Shown: positions 3,220-19,904, numbered from the stretch's first letter. The stretch: DNA of 38,382 bases from Burkholderiales bacterium (GCA_038234045.1 JBBSUX010000001.1:1-38382); one strand, 5' to 3'. The notes: generated from the sequence alone by a model not told the origin. Translations and numbers: made by a program.

Positions 3220-3460
3220 GCAAAGCGTCTCCTGATCTGGGGCAGTTGGCCGCTGCAGCACGCGCGACCTGCGGGCACTGTAAGCAGACGCATGCGGTCC
3301 GCCTCCAGTATTTACCCTGTGCAGCGCGAACCAGATTCGCAGGCCTTTAACGCCCTGCGCGCCGCCCGCTGGATGACAAGGGCAGTGGATTTTTTCTCAC
3401 CGTCTGGAACAGCGGCCTCCCGTAGGTTCACTGCTGATTTTCCAGGAGGTAAAAAATAAA

Positions 3461-4219
3461 ATGCTCGGCATCGTCATTCCGGCACACAACGAAGAGGCCT
3501 GCATCGGTGCTGCCGTGAGCGCCGCAAACACCGCCGCCCGTCATCCAGGCTTGCTGGGTGAAGATGTGCGCGTGCTGGTGGTACTCGACGATTGCAGCGA
3601 TGAAACAGCACAAGCAGCGCGCGCTGCCGGTGCGCAGACGCTGAAGGCGCACACACGCAATGTAGGCGCCGCACGCGCGGCGGGCGCTGAAGCTCTGCTC
3701 AATGCCGGGGCGCGCTGGCTCGCGTTCACCGATGCCGACAGCATCGTCTGCCCCAACTGGCTGGTCGATCAACTTTCGCTGAACGCCGACGCGGTTTGTG
3801 GAACGGTAGCGGTGGATGACTGGAGCGCGCACGGCATTCACGCCGCCCTGATCCACGCCCACTTTCTGGAAATCTATTTCGACCGGGACGATCATCCGCA
3901 TATCCACGGCGCCAATCTCGGTGTTTCTGCGGTGGCGTATCGCCTTGCCGGTGGTTTTTTGCCACTTCGTTGCGGCGAGGATGTGCACTTCGTCGATGCC
4001 TTGGAGAAGTCAGGCGCTCGCATCGCGCGCAGCGCCAAGCCACGGGTCGTCACCAGCGCGCGGCGCGATGCCCGGGCGGCTGGAGGGTTCGCCGACGCCT
4101 TGCTCAACGCTATCGCCACGCGGCTTGCAGCTGCGGCAGATCCTGCGGTCGGCGCGAATCACTTTACGCAAACCATTTCGCAGACCGCGCTGCCTGCGCC
4201 TGAAGCTCCCGCAATCTGA
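3461..4219 (+). CDS. family 2 glycosyltransferase (small, single GT-A domain)
   Basis: IVIPAHNEE..., VLDDCSDET and FTDADS (DxD) motifs. Strong SD (AGGAGG) 9-10 nt upstream of the ATG. Confidence 0.85.
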   Translation: MLGIVIPAHNEEACIGAAVSAANTAARHPGLLGEDVRVLVVLDDCSDETAQAARAAGAQTLKAHTRNVGAARAAGAEALLNAGARWLAFTDADSIVCPNWLVDQLSLNADAVCGTVAVDDWSAHGIHAALIHAHFLEIYFDRDDHPHIHGANLGVSAVAYRLAGGFLPLRCGEDVHFVDALEKSGARIARSAKPRVVTSARRDARAAGGFADALLNAIATRLAAAADPAVGANHFTQTISQTALPAPEAPAI

Positions 4220-4222
4220 CGC

Positions 4223-5293
4223 ATGCAACTCTCCGTACAACATGCGGCATCCCGGGTGGATACCAGACCCGACATCGCATCCCTGCTCGGCTCCATCAAC
4301 GAAGCGGAAGGGTTCCGCGAGTCGGCCATGCAGGCACTGATCGACGCCGGCCTGGACCAGCCCCCGCTTCCCGGTAGCGGCAACACGCTTGAGCGCTGGC
4401 GAGTGCTGGCGCAAGTCGCCAGCTACGACCTGGCCCTGGTGAAGTGGTTCGAAGGCCATACCGATGCCATCGCCATTCAGGCAGAGCTGAATCCGGGAAA
4501 TGCGCCAAGCGATGGCATCTGGGCGACCTGGTGCGCCGAACCGCCACAGGCCCGCCTGGAAATGGCAGCGGCCGATACCGGCGAGGTTCGTATCTCGGGC
4601 GCCAAGGCGTGGTGTTCCGGGGCGGCGATCGCTGCGTACGCGGTTGTCAGTACCTGGAACGCAAAGGGCGAACCTTGTCTCGCCACGGTCGATCTCCGCC
4701 AGAGCGGGATCACTTTGCACACGGGTCGCTGGCAGGCCGTCGGTATGGCGGCATCGGGCAGCCACGAGCTGAACTTCGACGATGTTCCGGCGCAGCCTCT
4801 AGGCAAACCGCACGACTATGTCGCCCGCCCCGGTTTCTGGCAGGGTGGCGCCGGCATTGCAGCCTGCTGGTGGGGCGGAGCGCGAGGAATCGCACGCCGC
4901 ACGCACAAAGCCTTGCGCCAGCATGCCAACCCGCATGCGCTGGCGCATCTGGGCGCGATTGACGTGGCTCTCGCACAGGGTGCCGCATTGCTGCGGGAGT
5001 CCGCGCGCTGGATCGACGAACATCCGCAGGCCGATGCCATGGTGTTAGCCCTGCGCCTGCGCGCAGCGGTAGATCAGCTGTGCACAGAGGTTATGCACCA
5101 CGCCGCTCGGGCAGTGGGTGCCGGCCCGCTGTGCAACGACCTGGCCTTTGCACGCGCTATGGCAGACCTCCCCGTTTTTCTTCGGCAGAGCCATGCAGAA
5201 AAGGATCTTGCGGCACTCGGCAGCCAGCTGCTCAAGGCGCCACACGATCCTGCTTGCCGCTTGACGAACGAGAGTAGCCCGTGGGATTTATGA
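4223..5293 (+). CDS. acyl-CoA dehydrogenase-fold flavoprotein (type-2 / monooxygenase-like, not an obvious acyl-CoA dehydrogenase)
   Basis: Middle beta-domain and C-terminal helical domain are recognisable (ISGAKAWCSGA, WQAVGMAASGSHELNFDDV, RPGFWQGGAGIAACWWG). Starts 3 nt after the GT2 stop. Confidence 0.8.
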   Translation: MQLSVQHAASRVDTRPDIASLLGSINEAEGFRESAMQALIDAGLDQPPLPGSGNTLERWRVLAQVASYDLALVKWFEGHTDAIAIQAELNPGNAPSDGIWATWCAEPPQARLEMAAADTGEVRISGAKAWCSGAAIAAYAVVSTWNAKGEPCLATVDLRQSGITLHTGRWQAVGMAASGSHELNFDDVPAQPLGKPHDYVARPGFWQGGAGIAACWWGGARGIARRTHKALRQHANPHALAHLGAIDVALAQGAALLRESARWIDEHPQADAMVLALRLRAAVDQLCTEVMHHAARAVGAGPLCNDLAFARAMADLPVFLRQSHAEKDLAALGSQLLKAPHDPACRLTNESSPWDL

Positions 5294-6093
5294 GCGAGCC
5301 CTCCGTGGCAGCCGAGCCTCAAATCACACTGGCGGAGGTGTCGGGTGATCGCACGATAGCGGCTACCCCGACCACGCCAGAGCACGACTGGCGCTCATGG
5401 ATCGAACAGCAGCGTTTCAAGGCGGTGGATCCTGCCCGGTTGCTCTGCGACCGCAGCCGCCTGGTGGTGGTTGCGCCGCATCCGGATGATGAAATCCTGG
5501 CGGCCGGAGGGCTGATGCAGGCAGCGACCCGGCTCGGCATTCCCGTCGCCCTGGTGGCCGTGACCAACGGAGGCGCCAGTCATCCGGGCTCAGTTTGCTG
5601 GCCGGTCGCGCGACTTGAAATCGAGCGGCCGCGTGAAACAACGCTCGCGCTCGCGCGCCTGGGCGTGCGTGCCGAACAGATCCGCCTCGGCTTTGGAGAT
5701 GGCGCGCTGGCGGGATCGGCCGAGAAGCTCGTCTCGGCCATCGGCGCAGTGCTCCATGAAGACGATCTGATGGTGACAACCTGGCGACTAGACGGCCATC
5801 CCGACCATGAGGTAACCGGGAATGCCTGTGATGTCGCAGCGCAGAGGATCGGCGCGCGGCTGCTGGAAGCCCCCGTCTGGGCATGGCAGTGGGCTCTGCC
5901 TGCAGATCCGCGTTTGCCGTGGCAGTTGGCGCAGCGGCTCGATCTGGACGCAGAAGCAGTACAAAGAAAAACGCTGGCCCTCAGCGCTTTTGAATCACAG
6001 CTCTCATCCGATCCGGCAACTTCATGCGAACCCATTCTTGGCCCGGCGATCGTGCAGCGAGCCGCCCGTAATTTCGAACTGTTCTTTGCATGA
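5290..6093 (+). CDS. PIG-L / LmbE family N-acetylglucosaminyl deacetylase
   Basis: VVVAPHPDDEILAAGG and GHPDHE metal-binding motifs. ATG 5290 overlaps the upstream TGA (ATGA). The ORF track starts it at an upstream GTG (5281). Confidence 0.85.
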   Translation: MSEPSVAAEPQITLAEVSGDRTIAATPTTPEHDWRSWIEQQRFKAVDPARLLCDRSRLVVVAPHPDDEILAAGGLMQAATRLGIPVALVAVTNGGASHPGSVCWPVARLEIERPRETTLALARLGVRAEQIRLGFGDGALAGSAEKLVSAIGAVLHEDDLMVTTWRLDGHPDHEVTGNACDVAAQRIGARLLEAPVWAWQWALPADPRLPWQLAQRLDLDAEAVQRKTLALSAFESQLSSDPATSCEPILGPAIVQRAARNFELFFA

Positions 6094-6713
6094 CACCACA
6101 GCCCGGCAACGCTGATCTGCGCGACGCCTACTTCGAGCCGATGTACCGCGCGGGCGCCGATCCGTATGGCGTACGAGACCGCTGGTACGAAAAAAGGAAG
6201 CGCGCGCTGTTGCTGGCGAGCCTGCCCCGCCCGAGGTTCGCCCGCGCTTTCGAGCCCGCATGCGGCATCGGCGAACTGACCCTTCAGCTGGCCGCGCGCT
6301 GCGACTACTTGCTGGCATGTGACTTCAGCACCAGCGCCGTTGCGACAGCGCGGTCGAAAACAGCGGCTTGCGCCAACGTGCAAATCGACTGCATTGATTT
6401 CACACACGCGTGGCCAGAAGATGCAACAGGGCTCGATCTGATCGTGTGGAGCGAAATCGGGTATTTCCTGTCAGCCGAAGTCCTTGATGCTGTGGCGGAA
6501 AAATGCCGCGCTTGCCTCAATCCCGACGGGATTCTCGTCGGCTGCCACTGGCGCCCCGACTTTGGCGAACGCACGCAAAATAGCGCCTCGATTCACCAGC
6601 GTTTGGGCGTCGGGCTGCATTCCCTCTCGACCCATGCTGAAGCGGATTTTCTGCTGGAAATCTGGTCACCCAGCCCGCGATCAGTCGCCCAACGCGAAGG
6701 AATTCGTGAATAG
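6090..6713 (+). CDS. class I SAM-dependent methyltransferase, NodS-like
   Basis: SAM motif I EPACGIGELT, acidic motif II LLACDFS, about 200 aa. ATGA overlap with the PIG-L stop. Confidence 0.85.
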   Translation: MTPQPGNADLRDAYFEPMYRAGADPYGVRDRWYEKRKRALLLASLPRPRFARAFEPACGIGELTLQLAARCDYLLACDFSTSAVATARSKTAACANVQIDCIDFTHAWPEDATGLDLIVWSEIGYFLSAEVLDAVAEKCRACLNPDGILVGCHWRPDFGERTQNSASIHQRLGVGLHSLSTHAEADFLLEIWSPSPRSVAQREGIRE

Positions 6714-6745
6714 CACGCGGCCAGGGACCTGCCGATAATCACCGC

Positions 6746-8449
6746 ATGGTCCGTTCCTCCCAGCTCCTGCATCCCGCGCGCCAGATCGCGCCTGTTCGTC
6801 AAGCCGCCACGGTGCTGCTGCTGCGCGATGCGCCGCAGGGGCCCGAGGTGCTACTCACGCGTCGCTCCGAAAAAGCCAGCTTCGCGCCGGGAGAGTATGT
6901 GTTTCCTGGCGGCGTCATCGACGCGGCTGACGCACAGAGCCATGCACTCGCCGCACGCCGCAGCACGCAGATCGATGTGCAACTGACCGAGGCCATCGCC
7001 GCCATCCGCGAATCGTTCGAAGAACTCGGGGTACTCCTGGCGCGGCACCACGACGGCCGCTTTGCCAGCGCGGCGGACGTCGCCTCGATGGATCGGCAAG
7101 CGCCCTTCTTTACGCAGTGCGCCGAACGCAGACTGGTATTGGCGGCAGATGCAGTCTTCACACTGGCGCACTGGACAACCTCGCGCGACCGGCCCAAGCG
7201 CTTTGCCACGATCTTTCTGGTGGCGCGCATGCCCGAAGGTGACCAGCATCCGGTCGCCGACGATGCCGAGCAGTTCGACCCCGTGTGGCTGCGGCCAGCC
7301 GACGCACTGGCTCGCCATGCACAAGGCGGCTTCTCGATGATGTTTCCCACCATCCGCACGCTCGAGCGCCTGGCAAAGTATCGCGATGTGGATGCCGTGC
7401 TGCTGGCCTGCGCGGCGCGCGACGGCGTTGAGACACCCCTCTGGAAAGCCGAGCCGCGCGGCGCGATGAAAGCTGGCAAGGCCGAGCGTTTCATGGACGA
7501 CGAATCACCCTTCGGCGAGCTGGCACTGGTTTGCCCCGATGGCCAGGTGGAGCACGCGCTCGACTGGCAATGCGAACGCCCTGTCGCGCTGCTGAAAAAC
7601 GTGCAGCGCCTCACCGCGCCCAACGCCGGCCGCATGACAGGCCCCGGCACCAACAGCTATCTGGTGGGCGATGCGGCAAGCGGATTCATCGCGATCGATC
7701 CGGGCCCGGACGACGCAGGTCACATCGCGCGCCTGCATGCTGCTGCGGTCGGCGACATCCGCATGATCGTCTGCACGCACTCACATCCCGACCATTCGCC
7801 GGGTGCGCGCCCCCTGCAGGCCCTGTGCGCTGCCGATGGCCGGCCCGTGCCACCGATCCTCGGCCTGCCATCGGCCCCAACGTCGCGCGCGAGTAGTGAA
7901 TTCACGCCGGATCGAGAACTATCGAATGGAGAGCTACTAGCGCTTTCACGCAATGCGCTAGAGCACGATTTGACTGTTATTTTTACGCCCGGCCATGCGG
8001 CGAACCACGTCTGCCTGGTGCTGGCCGAAGATGGCCTGCTCTTCAGCGGCGACCACGTCCTCAACGGCAGCACTACGGTGGTCGATCCACCCGATGGCGA
8101 CATGGACGACTACCTGCGTTCGCTCGACCTCCTGGCCGAGGTTTGCTTGCAGCAGCACATCGAATTTATCCTGCCGGCGCATGGCTATGTGCTGCACGAC
8201 GCACCCAATGTGATCGCCCGTCTCAAGGCGCACCGACTGGCGCGCGAAGCCAAGGTGGCTGCGGCCATCGCGGCAGTGCCTGACGGCGCGCCAGCCGACT
8301 GGCTGCCGCTCGCGTACGACGACGTTCCCCGCGCCATGTGGCCGGTGGCCGAGCGCTCGCTGATGGCGCACGTGGACAGGTTGCGCCGGATCGAGGCGGC
8401 ATCGATGGCGCACGACGCAAGCTCCGGGCAACGGGACACATCGGCATGA
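6746..8449 (+). CDS. Nudix-like domain fused to an MBL-fold metallo-hydrolase
   Basis: N-terminal half has REsfEElGv (the C-terminal part of a Nudix box). C-terminal half has CTHSHPDHSPGA (HxHxDH) plus TPGH and a later His. Confidence 0.85.
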   Translation: MVRSSQLLHPARQIAPVRQAATVLLLRDAPQGPEVLLTRRSEKASFAPGEYVFPGGVIDAADAQSHALAARRSTQIDVQLTEAIAAIRESFEELGVLLARHHDGRFASAADVASMDRQAPFFTQCAERRLVLAADAVFTLAHWTTSRDRPKRFATIFLVARMPEGDQHPVADDAEQFDPVWLRPADALARHAQGGFSMMFPTIRTLERLAKYRDVDAVLLACAARDGVETPLWKAEPRGAMKAGKAERFMDDESPFGELALVCPDGQVEHALDWQCERPVALLKNVQRLTAPNAGRMTGPGTNSYLVGDAASGFIAIDPGPDDAGHIARLHAAAVGDIRMIVCTHSHPDHSPGARPLQALCAADGRPVPPILGLPSAPTSRASSEFTPDRELSNGELLALSRNALEHDLTVIFTPGHAANHVCLVLAEDGLLFSGDHVLNGSTTVVDPPDGDMDDYLRSLDLLAEVCLQQHIEFILPAHGYVLHDAPNVIARLKAHRLAREAKVAAAIAAVPDGAPADWLPLAYDDVPRAMWPVAERSLMAHVDRLRRIEAASMAHDASSGQRDTSA

Positions 8450-16513: not shown

Positions 16514-16992
16514 GTGTGAAGTCTGCCGATAAGCCGGATTCTGTGCATCGGCTGCGCCTTTGCAGCGCAGCCGATGTGACCGCCATTACTCTGGGCCGGG
16601 GGTCGCCCACCCGGCTCGATGCCACCTACCCGCACACTGCCCGCGAGCCGCGGTTGGCTCAGGCATTGCTGCCCGCGCCGTGTGTGCCTAATTGGTGGTG
16701 CTGCGCGCAGAGATTGCCCGTTTCACCCGAGGCAGGCTTTGCCGGCCTCGGGCGGCTGTGGGATTCCAGGCTTTCACCTGGACCGAACGGCTAGCGCCAT
16801 CCGGTTGTCGGCTTTCGCCGCCGTCCCACAGAACACCTCTGGTGGCTACCACTGGCCCCGACTCGTCTCTGTTGCTCTGATCCTCACCTCACGGTGGAGA
16901 GTCGTTAACTCCTGCGCTGCCCTGTGCAGTCCGGACGTTCCTCCAGTGCGCTCTTTCGAGACTTGCACCAGCGGCAGTCTGGCAGGCTTCAC
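16514..16992 (-). ncRNA. rnpB: RNase P RNA, bacterial type A
   Basis: The minus-strand RNA carries these blocks: 5' GAAGCCUGCCAGACUGCC; GGAGGAACGUCCGGACUGCACAGGGCAG (P4 5' strand, complement of 16929-16944); GAUCAGAGCAACAGAGA; and 3' GCACAGAAUCCGGCUUAUCGGCAGACUUCACAC. They match the E. coli M1 RNA blocks. P1 pairing is GAAGCCUGCC/GGCAGACUUC, and a U-run follows the 3' end. Confidence 0.9.
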
Positions 16993-17526: not shown

Positions 17527-19242
17527 ATGCTGCGCCTGACTGAAATCAAACTCCCGCTCGATCACGACGACGACGCGCTGCAGACAGCGGTAGCTGCCGC
17601 GTTGGGCATCGCCGTGGCCGACATCGGAGAAGTCAAGGTCTTCAAGCGCAGCTTCGACGCCCGCAAGGTGGCATTGCTGCAGGTCTACATCGTCGACGTG
17701 ACACTGTCTGATCCGGCGCTGGAAACCGCACTGCTGGCGCGCCATGCCGATCACCCACACATCGCGGCCGCACCCGACATGACGTGGGTGCCGCCGCCCG
17801 CTGCCAACGCTTCGCCAACGCTCCGGCCGGTCGTGGTCGGCTTCGGCCCCTGCGGCATCTTTGCCGCGCTGGTGCTGGCGCAGCGCGGCTGGCGGCCGAT
17901 TGTGCTGGAGCGCGGCAAAAGCGTGCGGGAGCGCACGCAAGATACCTGGGGCTTGTGGCGTCGTGGCGAACTGCATGCCGAATCGAACGTGCAGTTCGGC
18001 GAGGGCGGCGCTGGCACGTTTTCGGACGGCAAGCTCTGGAGCCAGATCAAGGACCCGCGACACCTCGGCCGCAAGGTGATGGAAGAATTCGTCAAAGCCG
18101 GCGCGCCGCCTGAGATCCTCTACGTGGCCCATCCGCATATCGGCACTTTCAAGCTGGTGAAGGTGGTGGAGCACATGCGTGAGCAGATCATTACGCTAGG
18201 CGGCGAAATCCGCTTTCAGCAGAAGGTGGTCGATATGCAGGTGGAGCGCGACGCTGCTGGTGCGCGCCATGTGCGCGGCCTGACCGTACTGGACCAGGCC
18301 AGTGGTCAGACGAGCGATCTGCGCTGCGACCACGTCGTATTGGCGCTCGGCCATAGCGCGCGCGACAGCTTCCAGATGCTGCATGCTCGCGGCGTGCAGA
18401 TCGACGCCAAACCTTTTTCCATCGGCTTTCGCGTCGAGCATCCGCAGAGCGTCATCGACCGTGCTCGCTGGGGCCGGCATGCGGGCCATCCTCTCTTGGG
18501 TGCGGCCGATTACAAGCTGGTGCACCACGCGCGCAATGGCCGCAGCGTCTACAGCTTTTGCATGTGCCCGGGTGGCACGGTGGTCGCCGCTACGAGCGAG
18601 CCGGGCCGCGTGGTCACCAACGGCATGAGCCAGTATTCCCGCAACGAGCGCAACGCCAATGCCGGCATCGTGGTCGGCATCGATCCGCGCGACTTTCCCG
18701 AAGATTACGGCCAGCTCGAAGATGTGGCTCCAGAAGCACATGGCAAGCCGCATCCGCTGGCCGGCATCGAGCTGCAGCGCCGGCTTGAATCGCATGCCTA
18801 TGTGCTCGGCGGCAGCAACTACCACGCGCCGGGCCAATTGGTGGGCGATTTTGTTGCCGGGCGCGCCTCCACACAGCTCGGCAGCGTCGAACCCAGCTAC
18901 AAGCCGGGCGTGACGCTGGGCGATTTGCACAGCGCCCTGCCCGCCTACGCCATTGAAGCCATGCGCGAAGCGTTCCCGGTCTTCGGGCGCAAGATCGCCG
19001 GCTTCGATGGGCACGACGCAGTGCTGACGGGAGTCGAGACGCGCACCTCTTCGCCGATCCGCATCGGCCGTGGCGCAGACGATTTTCAGAGTCTGAATAC
19101 GCGCGGCCTGTATCCGGCGGGCGAAGGCGCGAGTTATGCGGGCGGCATCCTCTCGGCCGGGGTCGACGGCATCAAGGTGGCCGAGGCGGTGGCGCGCAGC
19201 ATGGCGGTCGCATCCGCAAATTCCGAAGAAAGACATCGATGA
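17527..19242 (+). CDS. FAD-dependent protein of the COG2509 type (uncharacterised NAD(FAD)-utilising dehydrogenase)
   Basis: N-terminal small domain (MLRLTEIKLPLDH...VKVFKRSFDARK), then the Rossmann motif VVVGFGPCGIFAALVLAQRG. Also FCMCPGG and a C-terminal GEGASYAGGILSAGVDG block. Confidence 0.85.
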   Translation: MLRLTEIKLPLDHDDDALQTAVAAALGIAVADIGEVKVFKRSFDARKVALLQVYIVDVTLSDPALETALLARHADHPHIAAAPDMTWVPPPAANASPTLRPVVVGFGPCGIFAALVLAQRGWRPIVLERGKSVRERTQDTWGLWRRGELHAESNVQFGEGGAGTFSDGKLWSQIKDPRHLGRKVMEEFVKAGAPPEILYVAHPHIGTFKLVKVVEHMREQIITLGGEIRFQQKVVDMQVERDAAGARHVRGLTVLDQASGQTSDLRCDHVVLALGHSARDSFQMLHARGVQIDAKPFSIGFRVEHPQSVIDRARWGRHAGHPLLGAADYKLVHHARNGRSVYSFCMCPGGTVVAATSEPGRVVTNGMSQYSRNERNANAGIVVGIDPRDFPEDYGQLEDVAPEAHGKPHPLAGIELQRRLESHAYVLGGSNYHAPGQLVGDFVAGRASTQLGSVEPSYKPGVTLGDLHSALPAYAIEAMREAFPVFGRKIAGFDGHDAVLTGVETRTSSPIRIGRGADDFQSLNTRGLYPAGEGASYAGGILSAGVDGIKVAEAVARSMAVASANSEERHR

Positions 19243-19904
19243 TGACTGCGAAGACAGATTCACCAGCGCCCGGTGTGGCTGCCATGCAAGCCGATATGCA
19301 TGTCTACGAGCCCGCGCAAGGCCACGGGCTGCCGCACGATCCGTTCAACGCTATCGTCGGTCCACGGCCGATCGGCTGGATCTCGTCGCAGGACGCGGCA
19401 GGCCGGCTGAACCTCGCGCCCTACAGCTTTTTCAACGCTTTCAACTACACGCCACCCATCGTCGGCTTTTCCAGTATTGGTCACAAGGACTCGGTCCGCA
19501 ATATCGAGGCGACGGGCGAGTTCGGCTGGAACCTGGCCACCCGCGAGCTGGCCGAACAGATGAATGCATCCTGCGCGGCTGTCGGGCCCGAGGTGGATGA
19601 GTTTGCGCTCGCCGGTCTCACGCCGGTAGCGTCTCGCCGCATCGCCGTGCCGCGCGTGGGTGAGAGCCCTGTCAGCTTCGAGTGCCGGCTGACGCAGTTG
19701 ATTCAGCTGCAGGGCGTCGACGGCGCGAAGGTTGAAACGTGGCTGGTGCTCGGTGAAGTAGTGGCCATCCACATCGCGCGCCATCTGTTGAAAGATGGCG
19801 TCTACGATACGGCTGGAGCGCATCCCATCCTGCGGGGCGGCGGGCCAGCGGATTACTTTCAGGTCATGCCGGAGAATCTCTTTCGCATGTTCCGGCCGAA
19901 GTAG
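19239..19904 (+). CDS. flavin reductase family protein (FMN-binding split barrel)
   Basis: GPRPIGWISS...NLAPYSFFNAF...P.I.GFSS pattern of flavin reductase-like domain proteins. ATGA overlap with the upstream stop. Confidence 0.85.
   Translation: MMTAKTDSPAPGVAAMQADMHVYEPAQGHGLPHDPFNAIVGPRPIGWISSQDAAGRLNLAPYSFFNAFNYTPPIVGFSSIGHKDSVRNIEATGEFGWNLATRELAEQMNASCAAVGPEVDEFALAGLTPVASRRIAVPRVGESPVSFECRLTQLIQLQGVDGAKVETWLVLGEVVAIHIARHLLKDGVYDTAGAHPILRGGGPADYFQVMPENLFRMFRPK

Follow-up and report, generated by a model that had tools for sequence, protein, structure and literature searches.

Mycothiol (MshA/MshB) and bacillithiol (BshA/BshB) are made by soluble cytoplasmic pathways that yield a protective small molecule, and both open with the transfer of N-acetylglucosamine (GlcNAc) followed by deacetylation by a PIG-L/LmbE-family enzyme, which frees the 2-amino group. 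Nod-factor tailoring (NodC, NodB and NodS) combines a family 2 glycosyltransferase (GT2) with de-N-acetylation and S-adenosylmethionine (SAM)-dependent N-methylation of the glucosamine amine, while in the ArnC/ArnD pair a GT2 enzyme transfers an N-acylated amino sugar from which a hydrolase then removes the N-acyl group. The nitrososynthases DnmZ, KijD3 and ORF36 oxygenate amino-sugar amines. Here we describe a cassette of four genes (positions 3461-6713, + strand) in a 38,382-nt stretch of DNA from a Burkholderiales bacterium (GCA_038234045.1 JBBSUX010000001.1:1-38382; the whole analysed stretch is hereafter called the window). The cassette encodes a GT2 glycosyltransferase, a flavoprotein of the acyl-CoA dehydrogenase (ACAD) fold, a PIG-L de-N-acetylase and a NodS-like methyltransferase (MT). 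We conclude with very high confidence that the four genes form one functional unit, and we propose, more cautiously, that this unit makes an amino-sugar conjugate modified on its nitrogen.

The cassette follows the logic of each of these systems and departs from all of them. Its transferase is an inverting GT2 enzyme, whereas that of mycothiol and bacillithiol synthesis is a retaining GT4; no cysteine ligase (MshC/BshC) is present in any locus examined, the cassette has no acetyltransferase, and the MT and flavoprotein stand in place of the thiol-adding steps. BshB1 and BshB2 are the best models for the deacetylase, at scores that fall short of equivalog membership (48.2 bits against a cut-off of 182.5, and 33.5 against 195, respectively). 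NodC is membrane-bound, whereas the cassette GT2 is small, soluble and non-processive-looking; NodB belongs to carbohydrate esterase family 4 (CE4) and the cassette deacetylase to PIG-L; and the MT scores 39.7 against the NodS equivalog NF041650, below its cut-off of 300. No nodABC genes, and hence no NodA acyltransferase, were found in any cassette locus examined, and unlike the Nod-factor system the cassette occurs in non-symbionts across phyla. ArnC is likewise membrane-anchored and ArnD of the CE4 type, in contrast to the soluble GT2 and PIG-L deacetylase seen here, and the Arn pathway possesses a flippase and a final transferase, neither of which accompanies the cassette. The flavoprotein shares its fold with DszC/TdsC, MsuC, SfnB, DnmZ, KijD3 and ORF36 (Foldseek probability 1.0, TM 0.64-0.72), but its identity to these group D flavin monooxygenases is at most 20%, it is shorter (~335-356 against 390-420 amino acids) with a reduced N-terminal helical domain, and its invariant EGHTD and RQSHAE motifs are not shared with DszC. 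None of the four proteins reaches an NCBIfam equivalog cut-off, and since every such comparison fails, the enzyme combination appears to be new among amino-sugar conjugate pathways. A reading of the sequence made beforehand without database searches (the sequence-only reading) had named no characterised pathway that uses this set, and none was found in the full-text literature or among the NCBIfam equivalogs.

All four open reading frames (ORFs) are translationally coupled. A Shine-Dalgarno sequence (AGGAGG, 3444-3449, + strand) is placed 11 nt ahead of the start codon (ATG, 3461) of the GT2 gene (3461-4219, 252 amino acids). The TGA of this gene (4217-4219) is followed by CGC and by the ATG of the flavoprotein gene at 4223 (4223-5293, 356 amino acids), leaving a gap of 3 nt, while the deacetylase gene (5290-6093, 267 amino acids) and the MT gene (6090-6713, 207 amino acids), all on the + strand, each begin within an ATGA overlap (5290-5293 and 6090-6093). 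These coordinates, including the packing of the four ORFs, the AGGAGG, the gap and both overlaps, were reproduced from the sequence exactly as the sequence-only reading had given them. The deacetylase may instead start at a GTG at 5281 (270 amino acids, 13-nt overlap), as a longer form of this kind is called in the closest relative (locus L085), which is 80% identical. No membrane-spanning segment was found in any of the four cassette proteins. In Pfam, the GT2, deacetylase and MT scored above the curated cut-offs of their families and the flavoprotein fell just under (32.7 against 33.3 bits), in agreement with the families originally assigned to the four proteins.

Because the other three proteins belong to very large families, the flavoprotein was chosen as the search marker and one genome per GTDB species was scanned by pattern, which confirmed relatives in at least 525 species. 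Among 1.84 billion cluster representatives, 1,666 matched the flavoprotein at E <= 0.001, and 322 (50%-identity clusters) did so at E <= 1e-30. Gene order was counted in the best 80 of the at least 525 species loci, using tblastn with the window's four proteins. The flavoprotein, deacetylase and MT genes (ACAD-PIG-L-MT) were contiguous and co-oriented in about 76 of the 80, with the GT2 gene within 8 kb of this core in about 62. The commonest order was ACAD-PIG-L-MT-GT2 (34 loci), the order of the window (GT2-ACAD-PIG-L-MT) being a minority arrangement (7 loci), and GT2 was detached or on the opposite strand in about 14. The quartet described by the sequence-only reading is thus conserved, although the GT2-first order in which it was encountered is unusual. 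Within the Burkholderiales the loci came from Variovorax, Xenophilus, Pseudorhodoferax, Caballeronia, Paraburkholderia, Massilia and Undibacterium, and elsewhere from Pseudomonas, Halomonas, two Actinomycetota, Chthoniobacterales (Verrucomicrobiota) and Vicinamibacteraceae (Acidobacteriota); annotated records with the cassette further include Acinetobacter, Cupriavidus, Pandoraea, Comamonas, Streptomyces, Kitasatospora, Embleya and Agrococcus. The same quartet therefore recurs across phyla and its adjacency is not accidental, which answers the test of co-occurrence across genomes that had been proposed for it. The Chthoniobacterales (L063, 8984-10030) and Vicinamibacteraceae (L076, 9086-10141) loci carry, between the flavoprotein and deacetylase genes, a GT2 of about 350 amino acids that is about 30% identical and may represent a different GT2 subtype recruited to the cassette.

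Gene fusions link the same four activities. Using a concatenated PIG-L+MT query, we found deacetylase-MT fusions of 439-467 amino acids (P0124, P0125, P0127-P0129, P0133, P0135 from Agrococcus, and P0141), whose genes sit within ACAD-[PIG-L::MT]-GT2 cassettes; the sequence-only reading had pointed to fusion proteins of this kind in public databases, and they not only exist but lie inside the same cassette. A triple fusion of flavoprotein, deacetylase and NodS-like MT (851 amino acids, P0375) and a fusion of GT2 with flavoprotein (534 amino acids, P0353) were detected among the flavoprotein relatives, so that all four activities are joined by fusion somewhere. Pairwise-identity matrices across 56 loci correlated at 0.86-0.89 within the core and at 0.68-0.75 with GT2. 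The locus closest to that of the window (L085, flavoprotein 80% identical) keeps all four genes in the window's order within wholly different flanks (GlgX, a UvrA paralog and KatE), which indicates that the cassette moves as a unit. Taken with these different flanks, the lower GC content at third codon positions (GC3) of the cassette genes (0.67-0.71, against 0.74-0.80 in neighbouring genes) suggests horizontal movement, and in several Acinetobacter strains the cassette genes are plasmid-borne.

The neighbours of the cassette are in many cases stress genes. In 11 of 89 loci, spanning six genera, a gene for a KatE-type large-subunit catalase is found no more than 8 kb away, and a gene for a GSP26/PNPOx-like stress protein is directly upstream in nine loci; further neighbours encode PA2169-family, DUF2171 and DJ-1/PfpI proteins, GlgX/GlgE and the trehalose enzymes otsA/otsB, and in Streptomyces rimosus the cassette comes after SpoIIE-phosphatase and HAMP signalling genes. 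On the Acinetobacter baumannii chromosome (L090, 5499-10285) a divergent DUF2171 gene is followed by ACAD-PIG-L-MT-GT2, a BOF gene (bipA) and the BLUF photoreceptor gene blsA, the cassette being immediately upstream of, and co-oriented with, bipA and blsA. The same order is drawn beside blsA in Acinetobacter papers (PMC9020721, PMC6240043), and co-regulation of the A. baumannii cassette by light or temperature is possible. RNA sequencing (RNA-seq) of this species placed ACICU_02432-02435 (annotated as glycosyltransferase, SAM-methyltransferase, LmbE and acyl-CoA-dehydrogenase-related) under one operon label and found them down 31-62-fold in lipopolysaccharide (LPS)-deficient, colistin-dependent mutants, as were otsA/otsB and numerous hypothetical proteins with high expression (PMC5660220). 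Full-text searches also gave a STRING listing (PMC9948694), and no functional study. The gene set itself is therefore already visible in blsA-neighbourhood drawings, in a published RNA-seq operon and in databases. Given the KatE, GSP26, PA2169, DUF2171 and otsAB neighbours and the A. baumannii RNA-seq, the cassette probably belongs to a stationary-phase or general-stress gene set in many lineages, a setting not visible to the sequence-only reading. As a separate observation, the Mycobacterium smegmatis GT2 MSMEG_1097 has a SigF promoter and is SigF-dependent (PMC4694148), is among the genes differentially expressed on spray-drying and is zinc-responsive (PMC4694148, PMC5445863, PMC7174638); it is an unconfirmed candidate for a mycobacterial cassette member, and the adjacent-numbered MSMEG_1098 has a KstR site of its own.

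We propose that the cassette encodes a soluble pathway in which an amino-sugar conjugate is made, deacetylated, N-methylated and N-oxygenated, alongside trehalose and catalase, a reading to which we give an even chance. The sugar transferred by the GT2 would be an N-acetyl-hexosamine (probably GlcNAc, with UDP-GlcNAc as donor), and its acceptor a common cellular compound bearing an anionic group; the PIG-L enzyme would then remove the N-acetyl group, exposing a primary amine, which the NodS-like MT would N-methylate; and the flavoprotein, with reduced flavin and O2, would oxygenate the amine nitrogen, so that it becomes part of a hydroxylamine, an N-oxide or a nitrone. What results would be a small amino-sugar conjugate with a modified nitrogen. 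In related loci the cassette is accompanied by no conserved transporter, ligase, acyltransferase or reductase, and as it is self-contained in this way its substrates should be common metabolites. We infer the donor, the acceptor, the order of the steps, both nitrogen modifications and any protective role, and we hold the proposed chemistry as a whole with moderate to low confidence.

The deacetylase scored 81.9 bits against PF02585 (cut-off 28.2), and its zinc/catalytic residues (H64, P65, D66 and D67; H170, D172 and H173) are conserved in at least 95% of 85 sequences, its HPDD and HxDH motifs aligning to those of TT1542. Its solved relatives are TT1542, Dbv21/Orf2*, diacetylchitobiose deacetylase and LnmX, in accordance with a zinc-dependent de-N-acetylase. 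The MT, of class I, matched Methyltransf_25 (41.7 bits against 27) and NodS (PF05401, 30.4 bits against 24), and its A. baumannii ortholog scored 57 bits against NodS; a conserved NodS-type N-terminal motif, DP(W/Y)...WYExRKR, is also present. A solved ortholog exists (PDB 4ISC, E 4e-42 over residues 31-193), which we take to come from Pseudomonas syringae and which is a structural-genomics entry carrying no function, ligand or pathway. The other solved relatives, PEAMT, NodS, GenN and a TDP-3-amino-sugar N,N-dimethyltransferase, are all amine N-methyltransferases, and the cassette MT is probably one too on the strength of these likenesses, as would suit the exposure and subsequent N-methylation of an amine that the sequence-only reading had envisaged. 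A PADLOC search for defence systems returned only a generic methyltransferase-domain match to mad2, with no defence context.

The glycosyltransferase is a GT-A-fold enzyme of the GT2 family by PF00535 (45.1 bits, cut-off 23.3), by its motifs and by its AlphaFold model (predicted local distance difference test score, pLDDT, 81), for which Foldseek gave probability 1.0 to WrtF, TarP/TarS, AvpGT and BcsA. The motifs PAxNE, DxCSD, TDAD (the DxD motif, T90-D91-A92-D93), HGANL, ED and TSxRxxxR are invariant in 68 sequences, and the Thr-Ser-Arg-Arg cluster of the last of these suggests an anionic acceptor. GlcNAc is put forward as donor on account of the PIG-L family of the deacetylase. A rival explanation starts from this enzyme: the GT2 might load an N-acyl amino sugar onto polyprenyl phosphate in the manner of ArnC, with PIG-L de-N-acylating it as ArnD does, and the sugar would then be methylated or oxidised and, under stress, attached to an envelope polymer such as LPS or peptidoglycan. 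Among solved sequences the GT2 profile does match ArnC best (E 4.5e-5), NCBIfam gives matches, also weak, to polyprenyl-phosphate glycosyltransferases (PpgS and a dolichyl-P hexose transferase), the invariant TSxRxxxR could bind phosphate, and expression of the A. baumannii operon collapses in LPS-deficient mutants. However, the ArnC match is weak and Foldseek returns generic GT2 neighbours; the enzyme has no transmembrane segment or obvious membrane anchor, unlike ArnC, GtrB and DPMS, and the genes conserved next to the cassette include none for a flippase, a final transferase or any other membrane protein. We therefore regard an envelope modification as unlikely.

The only Pfam match of the flavoprotein is Acyl-CoA_dh_M (32.7 bits against the cut-off of 33.3), the N- and C-terminal ACAD domains giving none, while its AlphaFold model (pLDDT 80; predicted template-modelling score, pTM, 0.83) shows the N-terminal helical, beta and C-terminal helical domains of the ACAD fold, confirmed by Foldseek (probability 1.0, TM 0.64-0.73). 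Foldseek ranks DszC/TdsC and DnmZ first, with true ACADs close behind (ACADSB, butyryl-CoA dehydrogenase and TT0160, TM 0.72-0.73); the top PDB profile matches are ColB1, TdsC/DszC, DnmZ, MsuC and KijD3, and the best NCBIfam match is SfnB (2.2e-8, 33.4 bits against an equivalog cut-off of 430.9). The flavin motif GTKAWCSGA aligns with GTKAFCSGS of TdsC and GTKHFCSGA of DszC, and ColB1 and DnmZ differ at this point. The invariant motifs of the family are K74xFEGHTD, WxxWxAEPP, GxKxWCSGA, PGFWQGGAGIAACWxG and RQSHAE. By eye, in a manual alignment with the C-terminus of medium-chain acyl-CoA dehydrogenase (MCAD), the invariant Ser323-His324 of RQSHAE presumably falls at the position of MCAD Glu376; likewise by eye, we take it that no Glu stands in helix G at the position of isovaleryl-CoA dehydrogenase (IVD) Glu254. 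That only 1,666 of the 1.84 billion representatives match at E <= 0.001 sets this discrete subfamily well apart from ordinary ACADs. Since the nearest solved relatives (DszC/TdsC, MsuC and DnmZ/KijD3/ORF36) oxygenate sulphur or nitrogen atoms, N-oxygenation is proposed, and from profile, motif and model comparisons the flavoprotein is most likely a reduced-flavin-dependent heteroatom (N-) oxygenase rather than a dehydrogenase. What the sequence-only reading termed an ACAD-fold flavoprotein thus looks closer to an oxygenase of the DszC/nitrososynthase type than to a dehydrogenase.

Were the flavoprotein nevertheless a true dehydrogenase, it would desaturate an acyl-CoA or acyl-ACP (acyl carrier protein) destined for the deacetylated, N-methylated amine, following a Nod-factor-like or lipo-amino-sugar logic. 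Fold and Pfam middle domain alike are of the ACAD kind, and ColB1, the top PDB profile match, is a dehydrogenase acting on a carrier-tethered substrate; the combination of NodB, NodS and NodA, moreover, joins deacetylation and N-methylation to N-acylation. Against this stand a flavin motif that agrees with DszC/TdsC and not with ACADs, the apparent lack, by eye, of a Glu at either catalytic-base position, the separation of the family from ordinary ACADs noted above and the fact that neither the cassette nor its conserved surroundings include an acyltransferase, an acyl-CoA ligase or a carrier protein, and we consider a desaturation improbable.

The chances are slimmer still that the cassette performs strain-specific tailoring of a secondary metabolite, or a salvage or detoxification route, as in aminoglycoside and glycopeptide clusters or with mycothiol-conjugate amidase. 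The PIG-L enzymes Orf2* and Dbv21 do tailor teicoplanin, nitrososynthases tailor antibiotic sugars, the low GC3 and variable location suggest horizontal transfer, and in several Acinetobacter strains the copies are plasmid-borne. Yet the four genes recur alone, in species that number in the hundreds and belong to at least five phyla, among stress genes rather than biosynthetic clusters, with no scaffold-forming enzyme, resistance gene or exporter, and a glycosyltransferase speaks for synthesis and against breakdown. Finally, that four unrelated genes are packed together by accident in this genome only, as might be imagined because all four families are large and promiscuous, is refuted by the cross-phylum linkage, the three kinds of fusion, the shared promoter motif described below and the co-expression, and has practically no chance of being right.

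Several observations weigh against a soluble pathway leading to an N-modified amino-sugar conjugate. Seventeen of the 80 loci have no GT2 inside 8 kb, and three Paraburkholderia loci (L067, L069 and L072) and a Cupriavidus basilensis plasmid locus (L089, 3060-6150) contain ACAD-MT-GT2 and no PIG-L of the cassette type. From these two sets of loci, the minimal conserved pair consists of the flavoprotein and the MT, and some lineages may do without the GlcNAc/deacetylation step. Cupriavidus does have a divergent PIG-L gene of Dbv21-like type, which pairs with a catalase gene and lies on the other strand at a distance of 3 kb; non-orthologous replacement could account for the missing PIG-L in Cupriavidus and Paraburkholderia, or deacetylation could be dispensable there. 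The GT2 reaches no characterised equivalog in NCBIfam (best TIGR04283, 45.5 bits against 182), and its structural neighbours are generic GT2 enzymes that use various donors and give no clue to the acceptor. By its fold the flavoprotein is about as good a match to true acyl-CoA dehydrogenases and to ColB1 as to oxygenases, and no flavin reductase is conserved beside the cassette in related loci. The stress link draws on gene neighbourhood and a single RNA-seq table, the flanks of the cassette in the window are housekeeping in nature (iron ABC transporter, TonB-dependent receptor, RNase P RNA and dihydroorotase-like genes), no clean copy of the promoter-like motif described below for Variovorax occurs in the window, and no assigned product or phenotype for the cassette was found in the full-text literature. 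Taken as a whole, the interpretation offered by the sequence-only reading has held in treating the genes as a single unit, in its fusions and in the fit of the amine chemistry, while the gene order proved atypical, an oxygenase is likelier than a dehydrogenase and the cassette had already been noticed.

In Variovorax/Xenophilus loci (L001-L079) a promoter-like motif, CCTAC[AG]-N17-C[CT]GAC, stands 40-120 nt ahead of the first gene of the cassette, with a -10-like CCTAnnnT box some 21 nt beyond it. The same motif also precedes each detached GT2 gene, those on the opposite strand among them, and of the 52 pattern matches on both strands of about 1.4 Mb of loci, 46 fall at sites upstream of the core operon or of a detached GT2 (e.g. 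L025 7839-7905; L006 4339-4400; L026 ~4029 on the - strand; L040 ~7177 on the - strand). The 17-nt spacer was considered as a conserved RNA hairpin and rejected, the stems being short, inconsistent and of a kind expected in GC-rich DNA; a promoter accords better with the constant spacing and the TAnnnT box. In L003, L006, L013, L035 and L038 the start codon of the flavoprotein gene lies only 6-8 nt past the TAnnnT box, which suggests leaderless transcripts, unlike the first gene of the window with its strong AGGAGG. The detached GT2 of Variovorax flavidus (L001, ~6561-7373) contains an in-frame stop codon, with the motif still upstream; either the gene is a pseudogene or the stop is a sequencing error. 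In the window, pairwise alignment with L085 revealed a common block ahead of the cassette (CTGGATGACAA ... GGATTTTTTCTCACCG ... CCCGTAGGTTC; 3369-3429, + strand), a putative promoter ending in CCG(T/A)CT-N17-TA(G/C)GTT, which is similar to the -10-like CCTAnnnT box seen in Variovorax. No match to the sigma-70 consensus was found in this block, and Rfam, at gathering thresholds, gave no RNA element ahead of the cassette, either in the window or in six related loci.

Downstream, 33 nt after the MT stop, the window encodes a 567-amino-acid fusion of NUDIX, metallo-beta-lactamase-fold and BLACT_WH domains (6746-8449, + strand). No terminator-like site was found between the MT stop (6713) and this ORF (6746), and transcription may therefore continue into what is an unrelated gene: both it and a neighbouring GMC oxidoreductase gene were considered as cassette members and set aside, being absent from all related loci. 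Elsewhere in the window are a bacterial class A RNase P RNA (16514-16990, - strand; Rfam, 168 bits, E 4e-52) and, at 17527-19904 (+ strand), a gene for a flavin adenine dinucleotide (FAD)-dependent protein (FAD-depend_C) followed by a Flavin_Reduct gene (19239-19904), the latter lying 12.5 kb from the cassette and neither gene linked to it in other genomes.

It is possible, though on balance doubtful, that the product is an undescribed, widespread stress metabolite, namely a glucosaminide carrying both N-methylation and N-oxygenation (a sugar amine oxide, hydroxylamine or nitrone). If so, soil, leaf-surface and hospital bacteria, A. baumannii included, would make it together with trehalose and catalase, and it would serve as a protectant, acting either as an osmolyte or chaperone like trimethylamine N-oxide (TMAO) or as a radical scavenger. 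Mycothiol and bacillithiol would then be joined by a third protective small molecule based on glucosamine, whose synthesis relies on a different set of enzymes. A PIG-L deacetylase, a NodS-like MT and a DszC/nitrososynthase-like flavoenzyme together predict an N-modified amino-sugar chemistry that would be new to primary or stress metabolism, and the system is tractable, comprising only four soluble proteins and no accessory genes. Its carriers include A. baumannii, plant-associated Variovorax, Pseudomonas and Burkholderiaceae, and Streptomyces, and no assigned product was found even though one component, the MT ortholog 4ISC, has a crystal structure. From its co-location and co-expression with trehalose synthesis and catalase, the product may aid survival of desiccation, osmotic or oxidative stress, the kind of survival that underlies both the persistence of Acinetobacter in hospitals and fitness in the rhizosphere.

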